From the IMG/VR virus record IMGVR_UViG_2579779116_000017: 5,689 nt of DNA; one strand, written 5' to 3'. Position 1 is the stretch's first letter. Each line of letters opens with the position of its first letter. This DNA comes from a virus. Its lineage: Duplodnaviria; Heunggongvirae; Uroviricota; Caudoviricetes. The position numbers and the translations under genes are program-made. A model generated the notes under the pieces. The model made no database searches. It saw nothing but the letters and a program-made list of their open reading frames with translations, and was not told where the DNA came from. This document shows, piece by piece, positions 1 to 5,689 of the stretch.

Positions 1-189
1 ATGAAAACGTTATTACCAAACGTTAATACGTCTGAAGGTTGTTTTGAAATTGGTGTCACTATCAGTAACCCAGTATTTACTGAAGATGCCATTAACAAGA
101 GAAAACAAGAACGGGAGCTATTAAATAAAATATGCATTGTTTCAATGCTGGCTCGTTTACGTCTGATGCCAAAAGGATGTGCACAATGA
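1..189 (+). CDS. Hypothetical small protein (62 aa), first gene of the + strand block
   Basis: ORF starts with ATG at position 1 and ends with TGA at 187-189. Its stop overlaps the next ATG (ATGA at 186-189), a classic translational-coupling arrangement. I recognise no family. The upstream RBS lies outside the window. Confidence 0.4.
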   Translation: MKTLLPNVNTSEGCFEIGVTISNPVFTEDAINKRKQERELLNKICIVSMLARLRLMPKGCAQ

Positions 190-377
190 ATTCAGCATTT
201 GTGCTTGTTCTGACAGTTTTTCTTGTTTCCGGAGAGCCAGTTGATATTGCAGTCAGTGTTCACAGGACAATGCAGGAGTGTATGACTGCAGCAACCGAAC
301 AGAAAATTCCCGGTAACTGTTACCCGGTCGATAAAGTTATTCACCAGGATAATATCGAAATCCCGGCAGGTCTTTAA
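186..377 (+). CDS. Hypothetical small protein (63 aa) with hydrophobic N-terminus (signal peptide or membrane anchor)
   Basis: ATG at 186 is preceded by AAGGA at 173-177 with an 8 nt spacer. Product begins MNSAFVLVLTVFLVSGEPVD, a hydrophobic stretch followed by a polar domain. The track ORF starts at ATG 132, but that ATG and the one at 177 lack a well-placed Shine-Dalgarno sequence, so 186 is preferred. Confidence 0.5.
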   Translation: MNSAFVLVLTVFLVSGEPVDIAVSVHRTMQECMTAATEQKIPGNCYPVDKVIHQDNIEIPAGL

Positions 378-469
378 AACAGTTCCGTAATAAATATCCG
401 GTTTCATTCTTATATGCCAGCAATGGCAGGGATTTGTTCATCCTTAAATCTGTCATGAGGTTAAAACAA

Positions 470-2941
470 ATGAGTAAAGTCTTTATTTGCGCCGCTATTC
501 CTGACGAACTGGCAACAAGGGAAGAAGGCGCTGTGGCTGTAGCCACAGCCATTGAAGCTGGCGACGAACGCCGTGCTCGAGCAAAATTTCACTGGCAATT
601 CCTGGAACATTATCCGGCTGCTCAGGACTGCGCTTATAAATTTATTGTCTGCGAGGATAAACCTGGCATACCCCGCCCTGCCCTCGATTCATGGGATGCT
701 GAATATATGCAGGAAAACCGCTGGGATGAGGAGTCTGCTTCTTTTGTCCCGGTTGAGACTGAATCCGATCCGATGAACGTCACTTTTGACAAGCTGGCCC
801 CTGAAGTACAGAACGCTGTCATGGTTAAGTTCGACACATGTGAAAACATCACCGTTGATATGGTTATTAGCGCACAGGAATTGTTGCAGGAAGACATGGC
901 AACATTCGACGGACATATCGTTGAAGCGTTGATGAAAATGCCAGAAGTTAACGCCATGTATCCGGAGCTTAAGTTGCACGCCATTGGGTGGGTTAAGCAT
1001 AAATGTATTCCTGGTGCTAAATGGCCCGAAATTCAGGCAGAGATGCGCATCTGGAAAAAACGTCGCGAAGGTGAACGCAAGGAAACCGGAAAATACACGT
1101 CTGTTGTTGATCTCGCCCGCGCCAGAGCCAATCAACAGTACACTGAAAATTCAACAGGAAAAATCAGCCCGGTCATTGCTGCCATTCATCGCGAATACAA
1201 GCAGACATGGAAAACACTGGATGACGAACTGGCCTACGCTCTCTGGCCTGGTGATGTGGATGCCGGAAACATTGACGGCAGCATCCATCGCTGGGCAAAA
1301 AAAGAAGTTATCGACAACGACCGCGAAGACTGGAAGCGTATCTCGGCATCAATGCGCAAACAACCTGATGCCCTTCGCTACGACCGCCAAACTATTTTTG
1401 GCCTTGTCCGTGAGCGTCCGATCGACATTCACAAAGATCCCGTAGCACTGAACAAATATATCTGCGAATACCTGACGACAAAGGGCGTGTTTGAGAATGA
1501 AGAAACAGACCTGGGCACTGTTGATGTTCTCCAGTCATCAGAAACACAAACTGATGCAGTGGAAACTGAGGTATCTGATATCCCAAAAAATGAAACCGCG
1601 CCGAAAGCTGAACCATCTGTAGAGCGTGAGGGGCCGTTCTATTTCCTCTTCGCAGATAAGGACGGAGAAAAATACGGTCGCGCAAACAAACTCTCTGGTC
1701 TGGATAAGGCACTGGCTGCTGGCGCCACTGAAATCACAAAAGAAGAATATTTTGCCCGAAAAAATGGCACATACACGGGCTTACCGCAAAATGTAGATAC
1801 CGCTGAAGATTCAGAACAACCAGAGCCGATAAAAGTTACCGCTGACGAAGTAAACAAAATTATGCAGGCAGCCAATATCAGCCAGCCTGACGCCGATAAG
1901 TTGCTTGCTGCATCACGTGGTGAATTTGTTGAAGGGATTAGTGACCCGAATGATCCGAAATGGGTTAAGGGGCTCCAGACCCGCGATTCTGTGAACCAGA
2001 ACCAGCATGAATCGGAACGGAACTACCAAAAAGCGGAACAAAACAGTCCAAATGCGTTACAAAACGAGCCAGAAACGAAACAGCCTGAACCAGTAGCGCA
2101 ACAGGAAGTGGAAAAAGTCTGCACCGCCTGCGGTCAGACCGGCGGCGGCAACTGCCCTGATTGTGGCGCGGTGATGGGCGACGCAACATACCAAGAAACA
2201 TTCGATGAAGAGTATCAGGTTGAAGTTCAGGAAGATGATCCGGAGGAAATGGAAGGCGCTGAACATCCACACAAGGAGAACACTGGCGGCAATCAGCATC
2301 ACAATAGCGATAATGAAACTGGCGAGACGGCAGATCACCCAATTAAGGTGAACGGTCATCACGAAATCACATCCACCAGCAGGACGTGTGACCATCTAAT
2401 GATCGACCTTGAAACCATGGGAAAAAATCCTGATGCCCCGATCATCTCAATAGGTGCAATATTTTTCGATCCGCAAACCGGAGATATGGGACCGGAATTT
2501 AGTAAGACTATCGATCTGGAAACTGCTGGCGGAGTCATTGATCGGGACACCATTAAATGGTGGCTGAAGCAATCACGCGAAGCGCAATCTGCCATTATGA
2601 CCGATGAAATCCCGTTAGATGATGCACTGTTACAATTGCGAGAATTTATCGACGAAAACTCCGGTGAATTTTTTGTTCAGGTCTGGGGAAATGGAGCCAA
2701 CTTCGACAACACGATTTTGCGCCGTTCATACGAACGGCAGGGGATCCCCTGCCCGTGGCGTTACTACAACGATCGCGATGTACGCACAATCGTTGAGCTG
2801 GGGAAAGCCATAGACTTCGATGCCAGAACGGCTATTCCGTTCGAAGGGGTGCGCCACAATGCACTTGATGACGCCCGTTACCAGGCAAAATACGTTTCAG
2901 CAATCTGGCAAAAACTGATCCCGAATCAGGCTGATTTTTAA
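470..2941 (+). CDS. Large phage exonuclease-family protein (~823 aa) with an uncharacterised N-terminal region, a CxxC...CxxC zinc-ribbon-like motif, an acidic/His-rich linker and a C-terminal DnaQ-like DEDDh 3'-5' exonuclease domain
   Basis: Uninterrupted 2.5 kb ORF in the exo position upstream of xis-int. The C-terminal ~180 aa carry DnaQ-like motifs: Exo I MIDLETMG, Exo II VWGNGANFDNTIL, Exo III HNALDDARYQ. A Cys cluster CTACGQTGGGNCPDCG lies at about nt 2120-2164. Start chosen at ATG 470 (MSKVF...) because of GAGG at 456-459; the track start at TTG 434 and ATG 455 are alternatives. Comparable lambdoid prophage genes are often annotated exodeoxyribonuclease VIII, but the C-terminal fold here is DEDDh, not the PD-(D/E)XK fold of Rac RecE. 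Confidence 0.8.
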   Translation: MSKVFICAAIPDELATREEGAVAVATAIEAGDERRARAKFHWQFLEHYPAAQDCAYKFIVCEDKPGIPRPALDSWDAEYMQENRWDEESASFVPVETESDPMNVTFDKLAPEVQNAVMVKFDTCENITVDMVISAQELLQEDMATFDGHIVEALMKMPEVNAMYPELKLHAIGWVKHKCIPGAKWPEIQAEMRIWKKRREGERKETGKYTSVVDLARARANQQYTENSTGKISPVIAAIHREYKQTWKTLDDELAYALWPGDVDAGNIDGSIHRWAKKEVIDNDREDWKRISASMRKQPDALRYDRQTIFGLVRERPIDIHKDPVALNKYICEYLTTKGVFENEETDLGTVDVLQSSETQTDAVETEVSDIPKNETAPKAEPSVEREGPFYFLFADKDGEKYGRANKLSGLDKALAAGATEITKEEYFARKNGTYTGLPQNVDTAEDSEQPEPIKVTADEVNKIMQAANISQPDADKLLAASRGEFVEGISDPNDPKWVKGLQTRDSVNQNQHESERNYQKAEQNSPNALQNEPETKQPEPVAQQEVEKVCTACGQTGGGNCPDCGAVMGDATYQETFDEEYQVEVQEDDPEEMEGAEHPHKENTGGNQHHNSDNETGETADHPIKVNGHHEITSTSRTCDHLMIDLETMGKNPDAPIISIGAIFFDPQTGDMGPEFSKTIDLETAGGVIDRDTIKWWLKQSREAQSAIMTDEIPLDDALLQLREFIDENSGEFFVQVWGNGANFDNTILRRSYERQGIPCPWRYYNDRDVRTIVELGKAIDFDARTAIPFEGVRHNALDDARYQAKYVSAIWQKLIPNQADF

Positions 2942-2945
2942 TGTT

Positions 2946-2982
2946 CAACTGTCGCCAGTTGTAGTTGGTATTCTGCAACTGG
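2946..2982 (+). promoter_or_regulatory. Overlapping alternative stem-loops in the exonuclease-xis intergenic region
   Basis: CAACTG (2946-2951)-tcgc-CAGTTG (2956-2961) forms a 6 bp hairpin. CCAGTTG (2955-2961) can instead pair with CAACTGG (2976-2982) across a 14 nt loop. The two structures are mutually exclusive. No U-run follows, so this is not a canonical intrinsic terminator. Confidence 0.3.
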
Positions 2983-3002
2983 CGCGTTCCGGAGTGATAG
3001 CC

Positions 3003-3272
3003 ATGAGCGAACAGTACCTGATAACGCTCGACGAGTGGAAACCCAAACGGTTCAGTCTCCCAATAACAAACACTACCCTGGTGAAATACGGAAAACTAGG
3101 ATACATCGTTCCAAGACCACAAAAAATTCGAGGGCGTTGGCTGATAGATCGCCGGGCAGTATTTGTTGGACCTGGTGAAACGGGAATTGCGCCAGAAATT
3201 CATACTGGCGATGATGATGCACTGAAGGAGATTTTAACTCATGTCACCGAGGCCACGAAAAAACAGCACTGA
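3003..3272 (+). CDS. xis: Excisionase / excisionase-like DNA-binding protein (89 aa)
   Basis: Small ORF immediately upstream of and overlapping the integrase gene, as in lambda. ATG 3003 is preceded by GGAG at 2991-2994 with an 8 nt spacer. The N-terminal sequence MSEQYLITLDEWKPKRFSLPITNTTLVKYGKLGYIVP resembles the excisionase-like family as I recall it. The track start GTG 2994 is less likely. Confidence 0.7.
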   Translation: MSEQYLITLDEWKPKRFSLPITNTTLVKYGKLGYIVPRPQKIRGRWLIDRRAVFVGPGETGIAPEIHTGDDDALKEILTHVTEATKKQH

Positions 3273-4359
3273 CGTAGCCGGTCTTTACGAAAAGTTTGAT
3301 CGCAGAACTGGCAGGGTTTACTACCAGTATAAAAACCCTGTGACTGGAAAATTTCACGGTCTCGGAACAGACAAAGGCAAAGCAGAAAAAATCGCTTCCA
3401 CAGCCAATCAGCGAATAGCTGCAGCAGAAGCTGAATATTTCATGCGCAAAATTGATGAAAGTCCGTCAGCAACAAAACGTCGGGGTATCAGATTAAAGGC
3501 ATGGGTTGATCGATATCTGAAAATACAGGACGCGCGACTGAAAAATGGAGATATTGCAGCTACAACTCACAAAGAAAAAGCCCGAATGGCTGCATACCTG
3601 GTTTCCCGTCTGGGAAACCACCCATTGAAAGAACTGGAAGTAAGAGACTTTGCATTAATACTGGATGAGTGGCTGGATAAAGACATGGTCAGCACAGCGA
3701 GAGTAAATCGTGGATTATGGGTTGATATTTATAAAGAAGCACAGCATGCAGGGGAAGTTCCTCCTGGATGGAATCCTCCGGAGGCCACCCGCAAACCGAT
3801 CCCTAAAGTCAGCAGAGCCAGACTCACCCTGGAAGACTGGCAAAAAATTTATAATGCAACGCCAGAAAAACACTTTATCCGTAACGCAATGCTTCTTGCG
3901 ATTGTTACTGGTCAGCGCCGTGATGACATTTGCCACATGCGTTTTTCAGATGTATGGAACGAACACCTGCATATCACCCAAGGGAAAACCGGAATGCGTC
4001 TGGCGTTACCGCTTACGCTACGCTGTGATGCCATTGGGATATCGCTAAAAGAAGTGATTGATGGATGCAAGGACAGAATATTGAGTCCATACCTGATTCA
4101 TAGTCGGCACCAGAAACAACCAAAACCAATGAGTAAAGATAACCTGAGCGACTACTTTGCTAAAGCGCGGGATCTGGCAGGAATAACTCCACCAGCAGGA
4201 AAAACACCACCAACATTTCATGAACAACGTTCCCTGTCAGAACGGCTGTACCGAGCACAGGATGTCGATACAAAAACATTACTGGGGCATAAAGTCCAGG
4301 CAACCACCGATCGCTATAACGATACTCGAGGTCAGGAATGGGTTAAGTTGGTTGTTTGA
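3241..4359 (+). CDS. int: Lambda-family tyrosine site-specific integrase (372 aa)
   Basis: Conserved catalytic residues line up with lambda Int: R in IVTGQRRDD, K in QGKTGMRLALP, H-x-x-R in TFHEQRSLSERL, H in LLGHK, and Y in TTDRYNDTRGQEW. The N-terminus (YYQYKNPVTGKFHGLGTDKGKA) resembles the lambda Int arm-binding domain. Strong RBS AAGGAG at 3225-3230, 10 nt before ATG 3241. The gene overlaps the xis 3' end by 32 nt. Confidence 0.95.
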   Translation: MSPRPRKNSTDVAGLYEKFDRRTGRVYYQYKNPVTGKFHGLGTDKGKAEKIASTANQRIAAAEAEYFMRKIDESPSATKRRGIRLKAWVDRYLKIQDARLKNGDIAATTHKEKARMAAYLVSRLGNHPLKELEVRDFALILDEWLDKDMVSTARVNRGLWVDIYKEAQHAGEVPPGWNPPEATRKPIPKVSRARLTLEDWQKIYNATPEKHFIRNAMLLAIVTGQRRDDICHMRFSDVWNEHLHITQGKTGMRLALPLTLRCDAIGISLKEVIDGCKDRILSPYLIHSRHQKQPKPMSKDNLSDYFAKARDLAGITPPAGKTPPTFHEQRSLSERLYRAQDVDTKTLLGHKVQATTDRYNDTRGQEWVKLVV

Positions 4360-4385
4360 CAAAAATAACCATCCGGGATTATAGT
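4356..4385 (+). promoter_or_regulatory. Near-consensus sigma70 promoter (TTGACA-N18-TATAGT) overlapping the int stop codon
   Basis: Exact -35 hexamer TTGACA at 4356-4361, then an 18 nt spacer and TATAGT at 4380-4385 (5 of 6 matches to TATAAT). Predicted transcription start is around 4392. Confidence 0.45.
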
Positions 4386-4391
4386 CTGCGC

Positions 4392-4468
4392 ACGCCAGCA
4401 AAATCTGGCGTCGGGATTGGCGTCCCGGATAGAAACCGCGACAGACACACGCCGCGAGTGTGTTTTTT
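4392..4468 (+). ncRNA. Candidate small RNA (~75 nt, three hairpins) bounded by the promoter and an intrinsic terminator
   Basis: Hairpin 1: CGCCAG-caaaat-CTGGCG (4393-4410). Hairpin 2: CGGGA-ttggcg-TCCCG (4412-4427). Hairpin 3 is the terminator. No RBS or plausible start codon lies inside. Not matched to any sRNA I know, so this is purely a structural prediction. Confidence 0.3.
4445..4468 (+). terminator. Rho-independent terminator (int-operon terminator and/or sRNA 3' end)
   Basis: ACACAC (4445-4450) pairs with GTGTGT (4458-4463) around a 7 nt loop GCCGCGA, followed by a T-run at 4463-4468. The stem is short (6 bp), so strength is moderate. On the - strand no U-run follows. Confidence 0.5.
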
Positions 4469-4567
4469 ATTGTCGTATGCGCACGCACATCTGAATTATG
4501 GTGGGCTGTGTGGGGGCACCGAAAGGTGCGCCGGTTGGTTTCCCGGTTACGCCAACCCTGCACAGTT

Positions 4568-4598
4568 CACCACCAGACGATTGGCGTCGTCGGTGGTG
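4568..4598 (+). other. Long stable stem-loop (12 bp with one bulged A, hexaloop TTGGCG) in the int-distal part of the intergenic region
   Basis: CACCACC (4568-4574) pairs with GGTGGTG (4592-4598). The inner stem is GACGA (4576-4580) with TCGTC (4587-4591), and the loop is TTGGCG (4581-4586). Same loop sequence as hairpin 2 of the candidate sRNA. Confidence 0.4.
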
Positions 4599-4629
4599 AG
4601 TTATTTAGAAACCACCCGAGGGCGTCATT

Positions 4630-5184
4630 ATGACAACTCAAATCTCTGTTGAAACTCTCTCCCCGATCACTCATAACCAGATCCCTGTTATTACCACTGA
4701 ACTTTTGGCGCAGCTTTACGGTACAGAAGCGATTCGCATTCAGCAAAATCACAAACGCAACTCGGATCGCTTTGTTGAGGGAAAGCACTTTTTCAAAATT
4801 GTGGGTGAGGAGCTAAAAAATTTGCGACTATCTTTAAGAGAGTCACAAATATCTCCCAAAACCCGCTCGCTCATCCTCTGGACAGAACGCGGAGCAGCCC
4901 GCCACGCCAAAATGCTGGAAACCGATCAGGCGTGGGAAGTGTTCGAAAAACTGGAAGACTGTTATTTCAATAAGAAACAACCTCCAGCATCGCCGCAAAC
5001 CACATCAGTTGCCGGTTGTTCGGTGTTGATCCATTTCAATAGCCACGGTCAGGTTGAGTTCACGGAAAAAGTCCCAGCCGACGCAATGGTGTGCACCCTG
5101 GAGCGTTTTAAGTTTTATCTGGAACAGCAAGGCTGGATAGTTGCCCGTAAGGAGCAACTGTTAGAAAGGTTAATGTCGCTTTAG
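4630..5184 (+). CDS. Phage regulatory protein with N-terminal Bro-N/ORF6N/Rha-like (antirepressor-type) DNA-binding domain (184 aa)
   Basis: ATG 4630 is preceded by GAGG at 4619-4622 with a 7 nt spacer. The N-terminal region ITTELLAQLYGTEAIRIQQNHKRNSDRFVEGKHFFKIVGEELKNL...LILWTERGAARHAKMLETDQAWEVFEKLEDCYF matches the conserved pattern of the ORF6N/Rha family as I recall it. The C-terminal ~70 aa are not recognised. Confidence 0.8.
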   Translation: MTTQISVETLSPITHNQIPVITTELLAQLYGTEAIRIQQNHKRNSDRFVEGKHFFKIVGEELKNLRLSLRESQISPKTRSLILWTERGAARHAKMLETDQAWEVFEKLEDCYFNKKQPPASPQTTSVAGCSVLIHFNSHGQVEFTEKVPADAMVCTLERFKFYLEQQGWIVARKEQLLERLMSL

Positions 5185-5191
5185 CTAATGC

Positions 5192-5215
5192 AAAAACCCC
5201 GGCATAGCCGGGGTT
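5192..5215. terminator. Bidirectional Rho-independent terminator between convergent genes
   Basis: GC-rich 7 bp stem CCCCGGC (5197-5203) with GCCGGGG (5207-5213) and loop ATA. It is flanked by AAAAA (5192-5196), which gives a U-run on the - strand transcript, and by TT on the + side. It sits between stop codons at 5184 (+) and 5222 (-). Confidence 0.7.
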
Positions 5216-5221
5216 CGGAGA

Positions 5222-5689
5222 CTAATCTTGATCAGGTTCCTGCTTAGAATAATGTTTTCCAACAATAAATGCCGTAACCAATGCAACAAGATCTACTGAA
5301 ACGAGTGTTACAGCAAGACCTGTTTGTCCCCTCGCGCCAAAAAAGACGGCTGCCAGTATGATAATCAGCGCAATACAGAAAGCCATTTTCTGACCATTTC
5401 TTGTGATCTTTATACTATCAGCGACTGTTTTATGGCGATGAGCTTGCTCTTTTTCCGTCAATTCAACGAGTCGATTTGCAAGCCCAGGAATCAATTGCTC
5501 ATACTCTTTCAGCATTGATGGCGGAGGAACCGGCCCCTGAAAATGCTGGCAAACAATGGCTCGCCCTTGCGGGCTATCCAAAACCCGATTTAAAACCTCT
5601 GGATTCTCGATTACTCGAGAAACCAGTTCGTTATCTTTTTGTTCTTCACTGGTGAGTTCAGCATTCTCACTTTCTTTTTGATCTGGCAT
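5222..5689 (-). CDS. Small membrane protein (155 aa): acidic soluble N-terminal domain plus C-terminal two-helix transmembrane hairpin
   Basis: ORF begins at the window edge (reverse complement ATG at 5687-5689) and stops at 5222. The C-terminus has two hydrophobic segments, MAFCIALIIILAAVFFGA and LAVTLVSVDLVALVTAFIVG, separated by RGQTG. The N-terminus is Glu/Asp-rich. Promoter and RBS are outside the window. Confidence 0.7.
   Translation of the reverse strand: MPDQKESENAELTSEEQKDNELVSRVIENPEVLNRVLDSPQGRAIVCQHFQGPVPPPSMLKEYEQLIPGLANRLVELTEKEQAHRHKTVADSIKITRNGQKMAFCIALIIILAAVFFGARGQTGLAVTLVSVDLVALVTAFIVGKHYSKQEPDQD

Follow-up and report, generated by a model that had tools for sequence, protein, structure and literature searches.

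Results

Two convergent genes and an RNA control region downstream of int

The window analysed here, a stretch of 5,689 nucleotides from a tailed phage (IMG/VR record IMGVR_UViG_2579779116_000017, Caudoviricetes), ends in two convergent genes that follow a lambda-type integrase gene (int). One encodes an ORF6N-domain protein of 184 amino acids; the other, on the opposite strand, encodes a DUF2335 protein of 155 amino acids with an acidic part and a two-helix membrane hairpin. Both genes had been described in an earlier note on this DNA and are present as described. The interval that separates them from int had been taken there for an attachment (att) region, and it turns out to hold a promoter and three RNA elements instead. 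Positions 4356-4629 are an antirepressor RNA control region, a switch of the type found in immI of phage P1 and in the IsrK-AnrP region of Gifsy-1. The features of this part of the window are the following.

4356-4385, plus strand: sigma-70 promoter, TTGACA-18 nt-TATAGT, with 11 of 12 consensus matches
4379-4431, plus strand: c4-a1b1 target motif (Rfam RF03163, 51.9 bits, gathering score 46.7)
4392-4468, plus strand: IsrK-like leader or small RNA (sRNA) (Rfam isrK RF01394, 73.4 bits, gathering score 50)
4417-4423 and 4432-4437, plus strand: upstream C4 target boxes b1 (UUGGCGU, in a hairpin loop) and a1 (GAAACC)
4447-4468, plus strand: intrinsic terminator that closes the IsrK-like element (terminator scan)
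4494-4577, plus strand: C4-type antisense RNA (Rfam RF01695, 72.5 bits, gathering score 45, model positions 1-87 of 87)
4498-4599, plus strand: possible upstream open reading frame (ORF) of 33 codons overlapping the C4 RNA; uncertain, a positional analogue of Gifsy-1 orf45
4536-4542 and 4549-4555, plus strand: C4 recognition segments a′ (UGGUUUC, in a hairpin loop) and b′ (ACGCCAA)
4581-4622, plus strand: downstream C4 target, with boxes b2 (UUGGCGU, 4581-4587, in a hairpin loop) and a2 (GAAACCA, 4608-4614)
4618-4622, plus strand: Shine-Dalgarno (SD) sequence GAGGG of the ORF6N gene
4630-5184, plus strand: ORF6N antirepressor-family gene, 184 amino acids
5195-5215, both strands: GC-rich hairpin of 9-10 bp between the convergent stops (-18.3 and -18.6 kcal/mol, z = -3.2 and -3.4)
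5222-5689, minus strand: DUF2335 inner-membrane protein gene, 155 amino acids (Pfam, PHROG 3996, hydropathy, AlphaFold)

The IsrK, C4 and c4-a1b1 elements all score above the Rfam gathering thresholds. Folding of the C4-like RNA gives a long stem (minimum free energy -45 kcal/mol) that leaves both a′ and b′ unpaired, and complements of these two segments occur twice, within the IsrK element and again downstream of C4. Boxes b2 and a2 are exact 7-nt complements of b′ and a′; the upstream boxes b1 and a1 are exact complements over 6-7 nt. Box a2 ends 3 nt ahead of the SD sequence and 15 nt ahead of the ORF6N AUG, and 52 nt lie between the end of C4 and the ATG. The two promoter hexamers are kept in 7 of 8 aligned phages. 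Unscored inspection by eye for a LexA box near the promoter found CTG-N7-CAG only, not CTG-N10-CAG, and thus no sign of SOS control. The -35 hexamer (4356-4361) overlaps the integrase stop codon (TGA, 4357-4359), so that any read-through from int would carry transcription on into the IsrK/C4 leader.

The possible upstream ORF begins at a conserved AUG in UUAUGGUGGG and stops 30 nt ahead of the start codon of the antirepressor gene (ant). Because it spans 31-36 codons in six enteric phages and shrinks to 8 in Yersinia YpM_44 and APSE-2, it does not represent a conserved protein. Another candidate for a coupling ORF, a 57-codon GTG frame at 4460-4633 whose TGA overlaps the ant start codon (ATGA), was rejected: it has no ATG and no recognisable ribosome-binding site (RBS), and its frame differs from that of the conserved AUG of Gifsy-1 orf45.

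Antisense segments and their targets vary together

Homologous leaders were compared at a total of 12 loci from phages of E. coli, Salmonella, Klebsiella, Yersinia and Hamiltonella. They include the Shiga toxin (Stx) phages 1717, STEC1589-Stx1c, Stx2_09E025 and phi24B, the phages phiV10, YpM_44 and APSE-2, two Salmonella prophages, one Klebsiella prophage and E. coli phage EC.W1-9. Six variants of b′ and eight of a′ were found, and the target boxes vary together with the C4 segments. Exact complements of at least 6 nt are present for each box at both target sites in 9 of the 12 loci; an upstream a1 box was not detected in Stx 1717, STEC1589 and EC.W1-9, nor a downstream a2 box in the Klebsiella locus (L089). 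The downstream a-box ends 1-16 nt 5′ of the ant start codon, and it includes the SD sequence or the AUG in phiV10, APSE-2, EC.W1-9 and YpM_44. Every IsrK/C4 module that we examined stands directly 5′ of an ORF6N- or Bro-N-type antirepressor gene. Such covariation is the behaviour described for c4 of P1 and P7, where pairing between loop and target around the RBS blocks ant expression and defines heteroimmunity (reviewed in PMC12197685).

The ORF6N protein belongs by sequence to antirepressor families

Residues 12-95 of the 184-residue protein match profile positions 3-86 of 86 of ORF6N (PF10543), with 81.4 bits against a cut-off of 27.8. A Pfam scan at E≤0.01 returned ORF6N only, with no Bro-N (PF02498) or Rha (PF09669) domain; from the composite label Bro-N/ORF6N/Rha assigned earlier, the middle term survives and the other two drop out. 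The fold is related to KilA-N/Bro-N-type domains, and the protein is not a Bro-N member at the sequence level. Its architecture comprises a winged-helix ORF6N domain (residues 12-113), a disordered linker (117-128) and a small C-terminal domain (about 130-184). AlphaFold models the N-terminal domain with confidence, at a predicted local distance difference test (pLDDT) of 80-89, and the C-terminal domain less so (about 60-70); a Pfam search with the C-terminal 70 residues gave no match.

PHROG 2379, annotated as 'anti-repressor', is matched over the full length of the protein (E 6e-88). Identity to Ant of phage phi24B is 45% over residues 1-178, and the N-terminal part is 55-65% identical to other Stx-phage Ants. 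When ant is deleted from phi24B, late-promoter activity after induction falls, and complementation restores it (PMC3064807). Judged from its sequence, the protein is a member of the antirepressor families, and it probably inactivates a phage repressor and promotes induction. An induction/immunity switch of the immI type explains the gene better than does the defence-cargo role suggested for it in the earlier note.

The protein has 4,753 homologues at E≤1e-5, and DNA matching the leader and the N-domain is found in 1,987 of 5,426 complete E. coli genomes (~37%). In other prophages close full-length relatives lie behind Q or behind genes for tail fibres, there without DUF2335, and the cassette is thus mobile among accessory sites. 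A search of PDB sequences with the ORF6N and DUF2335 proteins returned nothing significant (best hits CASC3, E 0.14, and the kinase StkP, E 0.57), and NCBIfam has no family for either of them or for the 67-residue protein described below. In PADLOC-DB v2 the ORF6N protein matches the candidate family PDC-S05 at the domain level only (E 6e-10).

DUF2335 is the second gene of a small operon

The minus-strand protein matches DUF2335 (PF10097) with 46.7 bits against a threshold of 25, as well as PHROG 3996, 'membrane protein'. Its residues 1-45 are acidic (isoelectric point 4.3), it carries the family motif in the form FQGPVPPP...Y...PGLANR...EKEQAHRH within an acidic, helical part assigned to the cytoplasm, and two hydrophobic segments, at about 101-120 and 124-144, exceed 2.2 in a Kyte-Doolittle 19-residue window. 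Positive charges flank the cytoplasmic sides of the hairpin, and an Asp in the second transmembrane (TM) helix is invariant among the aligned enterobacterial homologues. AlphaFold, run with 22 homologues, gave a mean pLDDT of 59, in which the TM helical hairpin (83-86) alone is reliable. A profile of close homologues collects 12,138 clusters at 50% identity, nearly all of 110-220 amino acids; DUF2335 is thus a large single-domain family. A literature search on DUF2335 found no description of it. The 'DUF2335 phospholipase' that appears in the literature on type VI secretion does not fit a family with two TM helices, is probably a slip for another DUF and was set aside, and homology to SieA of P22 was rejected (hhalign probability 0.4%). 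Residues 44-99 (about 5393-5560, minus strand) show a sub-threshold likeness to Ser/Thr kinases, seen with PD-T4-6 (E 0.002) and StkP (E 0.57), which is probably due to chance.

Immediately 3′ of the hairpin between the two stop codons, the minus strand reads UUUUUG and the plus strand UUCGGAG. With the U-run on the minus strand only, the hairpin qualifies as an intrinsic terminator for DUF2335, whereas for ORF6N it can be no more than a weak one. What had been called a bidirectional terminator is therefore confirmed as a hairpin and as a minus-strand terminator, and not as a plus-strand one, where it is weak and has no U-run.

The ATG of the DUF2335 gene coincides with the last base of the window, and the co-transcribed upstream sequence falls outside. 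That sequence was followed in a related locus, L004, which matches the window at 98.9% identity over 1830-5689 and extends beyond position 5689, as the earlier note had advised. There DUF2335 is the second gene of an operon: it is preceded by an ORF of 67 amino acids (L004 9820-10023) that overlaps it by 23 nt, has an AGGAG RBS and follows a TTGAAA-18-TAGAAT promoter. The DUF2335 cassette therefore consists of 5195-5689 and about 270 bp beyond the window, on the minus strand.

No Pfam match was found for the 67-residue protein or its distant counterparts. The small proteins of E. coli and of Pseudomonas phage MD8 match the same PHROG, phrog_26284, and an ORF of about 70 amino acids stands directly 5′ of DUF2335, often overlapping it, in E. 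coli, Salmonella, Pseudomonas, Staphylococcus and a metagenomic phage (L044 2706-2945, L045 2784-2999, L085 3757-3972, L086 3796-4008, L087 3780-3995). The counterpart in EC.W1-9 has 108 amino acids (L043 2637-2963). A loose L..D....G.DF.KA motif is common to the aligned small proteins. The small ORF and DUF2335 together look like a conserved, undescribed two-gene cassette, and the pair always occupies accessory spots, in Pseudomonas and Staphylococcus phages as well.

DUF2335 is carried by 210 of the 5,426 complete E. coli genomes. At least 80% of 4300-5689, with both ORF6N and DUF2335, is matched in only 3 of these 210 carriers; for the other 207, contexts were sampled. An E. coli allele of 84% identity, which accounts for most of the 210 carriers, lies directly beside int without ORF6N in the contigs sampled. 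Salmonella homologues were found after the tail fibres, convergent with an IsrK/C4-ORF6N cassette (78% identity), and in the nin region (57%), and a Pantoea homologue (51%) is flanked by cI and N, where lambda carries rexAB. The homologue of Pseudomonas phage MD8 lies between int and the tail fibres. Staphylococcal phage homologues follow the lysin gene, at the prophage end or beside int, and a homologue on a Pseudomonas chromosome stands among methyltransferases, DUF4145 and an AAA_15 ATPase. The small ORF of about 70 amino acids adjoins or overlaps the 5′ end of DUF2335 in the majority of these contexts. These positions fit an accessory function expressed in the lysogen.

Both cassettes lie inside the prophage

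In E. coli K-12, potB and potC are contiguous. In E. coli RSHH22 they are separated by a 46-kb prophage whose head genes are lambda-like and whose tail genes are of the contractile type. Host homology from both sides overlaps in the 3′ end of potB over 14 bp, TGAATAAGAAGGTG, which is the att core; it is duplicated at both RSHH22 junctions, with the right copy past the 67-residue ORF, and a search of the window for it found none. Phage DNA in close relatives continues for about 0.5 kb past the window end, up to the att next to potC. The gene order potD-potC, 67-residue ORF, DUF2335, ORF6N, RNA leader, int, xis, exonuclease holds in 10 of the 10 contigs listed. Because the right att copy lies past the 67-residue ORF, both genes are cargo of the phage, placed in the int-att interval of an att-bounded prophage. 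The earlier note had thus judged correctly that the pair is accessory cargo, K-12 having no such genes between potB and potC, and had erred in placing it outside att, the real core being found past the window end, next to potC in relatives. The int-att interval here corresponds to the lambda b region. A scan of the window for tRNA and tmRNA genes found none, which leaves no place for a tRNA-type att.

The exact DUF2335 protein is recorded in 187 data blocks, and a search of IMG/VR for related loci yielded this E. coli prophage almost exclusively. Like the window, most IMG/VR contigs with the DUF2335 gene (L048-L080) start or stop exactly at its start codon. Our comparison suggests that automated prophage-boundary calls cut off the last ~0.5 kb, with the 67-residue ORF, its promoter and att.

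The immunity regions of the relatives L003-L012, some 6-8 kb from DUF2335, encode different repressors despite a common int/cargo end. Some of the repressors have an S24 peptidase domain and others are short proteins with a helix-turn-helix only, and some regions carry ParE/PaaA2 toxin-antitoxin pairs. Short, non-cleavable repressors would need an antirepressor for induction.

Independent gain and loss of the two cassettes

Relative to L021, the window type carries an additional 800 bp that begin at the int stop and end 20 nt short of the ORF6N stop, exactly the promoter-IsrK-C4-ORF6N unit. Compared with L047 it has about 866 bp more, made up of the terminator, DUF2335, the 67-residue ORF and its promoter. 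One potB-phage backbone can thus carry Ant only, DUF2335 only, or both, each cassette being a clean indel of 0.8-0.9 kb, and strain SC516 has other cargo at the second (DUF2335) position. The separate indels mean that the cassettes are gained and lost independently, and the earlier view of the two genes as independent units is upheld by the occurrence of each without the other on the same backbone. Co-occurrence across genomes, which had been proposed as a check, gives the same picture: the pair is adjacent in four contexts, yet each member is also found alone.

Two further arrangements may be recorded. In epsilon15-like phages an IsrK-C4-Bro-N cassette and DUF2335 stand in tandem on one strand and possibly form one transcription unit (L089 2692-4546, a Klebsiella prophage; L043 1592-3438, E. 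coli phage EC.W1-9). Phage phiV10 (L018 3473-3613) has a gene for a 46-residue membrane protein with two TM helices and no Pfam match, convergent with its IsrK-C4-Bro-N cassette; the layout is similar to that of the window, and the gene is unrelated to DUF2335.

Other genes of the window

The genes that precede the pair are a lambdoid early-left arm on the plus strand.

1-189, plus strand: DicB homologue (ORF list and Pfam scans)
132-377, plus strand: DUF1482 protein (ORF list and Pfam scans)
434-2941, plus strand: RecE-like protein of about 820 amino acids with a C-terminal Rv2179c-type exonuclease domain (Pfam)
2994-3272, plus strand: excisionase
3241-4359, plus strand: lambda-type integrase, stop codon TGA at 4357-4359

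The middle part of the 434-2941 ORF matches exodeoxyribonuclease VIII (RecE), and its C-terminal domain is of the Rv2179c-like 3′-5′ exonuclease kind. The true start is probably downstream of the listed TTG, as relatives have 809-823 amino acids. The close relative L004 has a DicF sRNA (15852-15903; Rfam, 73.6 bits) immediately upstream of this arm.

Discussion

We consider it likely that the two genes at the end of the window belong to separate accessory ('moron') cassettes, carried by a lambdoid prophage inserted in the 3′ end of potB, with both cassettes lying between int and the junction with host DNA. The first (4356-5215, plus strand) would be an antirepressor switch of the immI type. 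A constitutive promoter abutting the int stop would transcribe a leader containing the IsrK-like RNA and the C4-like antisense RNA, and the two unpaired 7-nt segments of the latter would pair with the boxes just upstream of the ORF6N SD sequence. Such pairing is expected to block antirepressor translation; complementarity and covariation are what we observe, and the block is what we infer from them. The IsrK-like RNA, with its second copy of both boxes, would serve as a decoy, titrating C4 and thereby activating the switch, a scheme that combines the P1 and Gifsy-1 models and that, as a synthesis of the two, is the most likely role for this RNA by analogy. Once made, the ORF6N protein would inactivate a phage repressor and lead to induction, as its homology to phi24B Ant and its PHROG annotation predict. 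The second cassette would be a two-gene operon with its own promoter, encoding the 67-residue protein and an inner-membrane protein with two TM helices. From its position and architecture it would most likely be a membrane module expressed in the lysogen and directed against incoming phage, by superinfection exclusion or abortive infection.

The first cassette has close counterparts among known immunity systems. As in immI of P1 and P7 (c4-icd-ant), a C4 RNA (RF01695) lies in the ant leader, its two unpaired segments have one pair of boxes upstream and one downstream, the downstream pair is at the translation start region, and specificity variants covary as they do in heteroimmunity. In contrast to P1, the window has no icd gene, so that C4 targets ant directly, from a distance of 52 nt; the antirepressor, an ORF6N protein, has no relation to Ant1/2; and the cassette is chromosomal, in the int-att interval of a lambdoid prophage, with C1 control of the promoter not evident. 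Closer still in layout is the isrK-orf45/STnc1160-anrP region of Gifsy-1 in Salmonella, likewise in a lambdoid prophage, which has the same order of promoter, IsrK with its own terminator, stable C4-like RNA and antirepressor-like gene, and in which read-through of the IsrK terminator is also needed for the ant mRNA. Its homologous promoter, PisrK, drives isrK-orf45-anrP, orf45 is translated and AnrP induces the prophage; the mRNA that reads through the IsrK terminator is inactive and short IsrK activates it in trans (PMC4825925). Lysogens transcribe IsrK and STnc1160 strongly in every condition tested (PMC7067206). The window differs from Gifsy-1 in that its upstream ORF has 33 codons rather than the 45 of orf45, its neighbour is int rather than antQ, and the convergent DUF2335 operon stands where no isrJ-like RNA was detected downstream. 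To the Stx phages (phi24B, 933W-type, 1717/2851) the leader and the ORF6N N-domain (4392-4969) are related at 88% nucleotide identity, and the N-terminal parts of the proteins at 45-65%. However, the window protein has 184 amino acids against 221-254 and another C-terminal domain (P22_AR_C in the phi24B record), and its gene lies between int and att, whereas the Stx genes lie between ninE and roi in the nin region.

For the second cassette the parallels are looser. The protein conforms to its family (PF10097/PHROG 3996) in the GP(V/L)PxP...Y...PG...HR motif followed by two TM helices and in its typical size of 110-220 amino acids, and departs from the family description in being preceded by the overlapping 67-residue ORF. 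Like SieA of P22, RexB of lambda and Imm of T4, it is a small inner-membrane protein in an accessory position of a temperate phage; the Pantoea homologue sits at the very place of rexAB, and sieA too adjoins an ant region. It has no sequence or profile similarity to these proteins (hhalign probability 0.4% for SieA), and its topology and size differ from those of RexB.

Several observations weigh against our interpretation. Repressor binding by the ORF6N protein is predicted from homology only, and its C-terminal domain, modelled at a confidence of just 60-70, is unlike the P22_AR_C domain of the studied Stx-phage Ants. Box a2 stops 3 nt short of the SD sequence in the window, which makes RBS occlusion an inference. 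In Gifsy-1, co-expression of STnc1160 with IsrK did not give the rescue predicted by simple titration (PMC4825925). No immunity region is visible in the window. As for the second cassette, exclusion or abortive infection is pointed to by the position and architecture of DUF2335 alone, the model of its soluble part is unreliable (pLDDT about 45-55), and PADLOC-DB v2 gave no significant match for it (best PD-T4-6, E 0.002, 15.6 bits).

Other explanations have to be set against these points. There is virtually no chance that 4360-4629 is an att site after all, with both genes outside the prophage in host DNA or a neighbouring island: nothing but its place immediately behind int, the site of attP in lambda, speaks for this layout, which founders on the duplication of the core, once at the potB end and again a short way upstream of potC, past the 67-residue ORF, on the absence of that core from the window, on the lack of such genes between potB and potC in K-12, and on the three Rfam-scored RNA elements that fill the interval. 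An unlikely but more substantial alternative holds that the ORF6N protein is a DNA-binding regulator, or a toxic KilA-like or defence-candidate protein, that merely uses the same RNA gate. The PADLOC candidate family PDC-S05 has the same domain, the characterised Ants have another C-terminal domain, and the outcome of AnrP in Gifsy-1 is toxic through AntQ (PMC4825925). Yet the anti-repressor PHROG is matched over the full length, the identity over residues 1-178 is to an Ant with genetic evidence of derepression (PMC3064807), and 12 of 12 homologous RNA gates precede antirepressor-family genes, all of which favours an antirepressor. We are similarly doubtful that the 67-residue/DUF2335 operon is a toxin-antitoxin-like addiction pair, a lysis-timing accessory or a membrane factor of lysogenic conversion. 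Its overlapping small-gene/membrane-gene layout does resemble toxin-antitoxin operons, homologues follow the holin and endolysin genes in staphylococcal phages, and no known PADLOC defence model is matched; but the gene is not beside lysis genes in enteric, Pantoea or Pseudomonas contexts, and the rex position in Pantoea and the defence-island-like surroundings of one Pseudomonas copy speak for an antiphage role; none of this is decisive.

We regard it as very unlikely that the two cassettes are one system, for instance an immI-like immunity region joined to an exclusion function as in sieA-mnt-arc-ant of P22. An IsrK/C4-Ant unit adjoins DUF2335 in four contexts (the window-type E. coli phages, Salmonella L026/L027, the Klebsiella Uetakevirus loci L089/L090, and EC.W1-9), in two orientations and with two Ant N-domains; the DUF2335 proteins concerned are only about 32% identical, two of the arrangements are tandem with Bro-N Ants, and homology between the Salmonella block and the window type extends from promoter to promoter (72-77% nucleotide identity). 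P22, moreover, carries sieA beside its ant region. These associations have to be reconciled with the presence of either cassette alone on the same backbone, with the lack of an Ant neighbour of DUF2335 in 8 of the 12 contexts examined, with ORF6N relatives that lie after Q or tail fibres without DUF2335, and with separate promoters and convergent transcription; and as about 37% of complete E. coli genomes have such Ant leaders, the two could meet in hotspots by chance. We take the repeated adjacency to mean that both cassettes favour the same accessory hotspots, and see only a small chance that they are functionally tied. A wider proposal, quite unlikely in our estimation, is that the small protein and DUF2335 constitute a new two-component membrane module for exclusion or abortive infection throughout the temperate phages of Enterobacteria, Pseudomonas and Staphylococcus, tied in enteric phages to the C4/IsrK-gated Ant. 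Such a tie could arise, for example, if read-through from the induced Ant promoter across the shared convergent terminator silenced the exclusion operon.

With two separate cassettes as the preferred interpretation, the stretch after int in a common E. coli prophage family is a complete antisense-RNA Ant switch and not an att site, and automated prophage boundaries and att calls there are accordingly likely to be wrong. In itself the switch is an ordinary representative of its kind, a further case of control that is already well described; the covariation of its loops and targets means that several distinct 'immunity specificities' circulate among enteric phages. The DUF2335 cassette represents a known but uncharacterised family of more than 12,000 clusters (at 50% identity) that is phage-borne, occupies classical moron or defence positions and often has a small, conserved gene as its partner. 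The simplest guess is that this cassette serves in exclusion or abortive infection, and the DUF2335 gene is a cheap candidate for a phage-defence screen.

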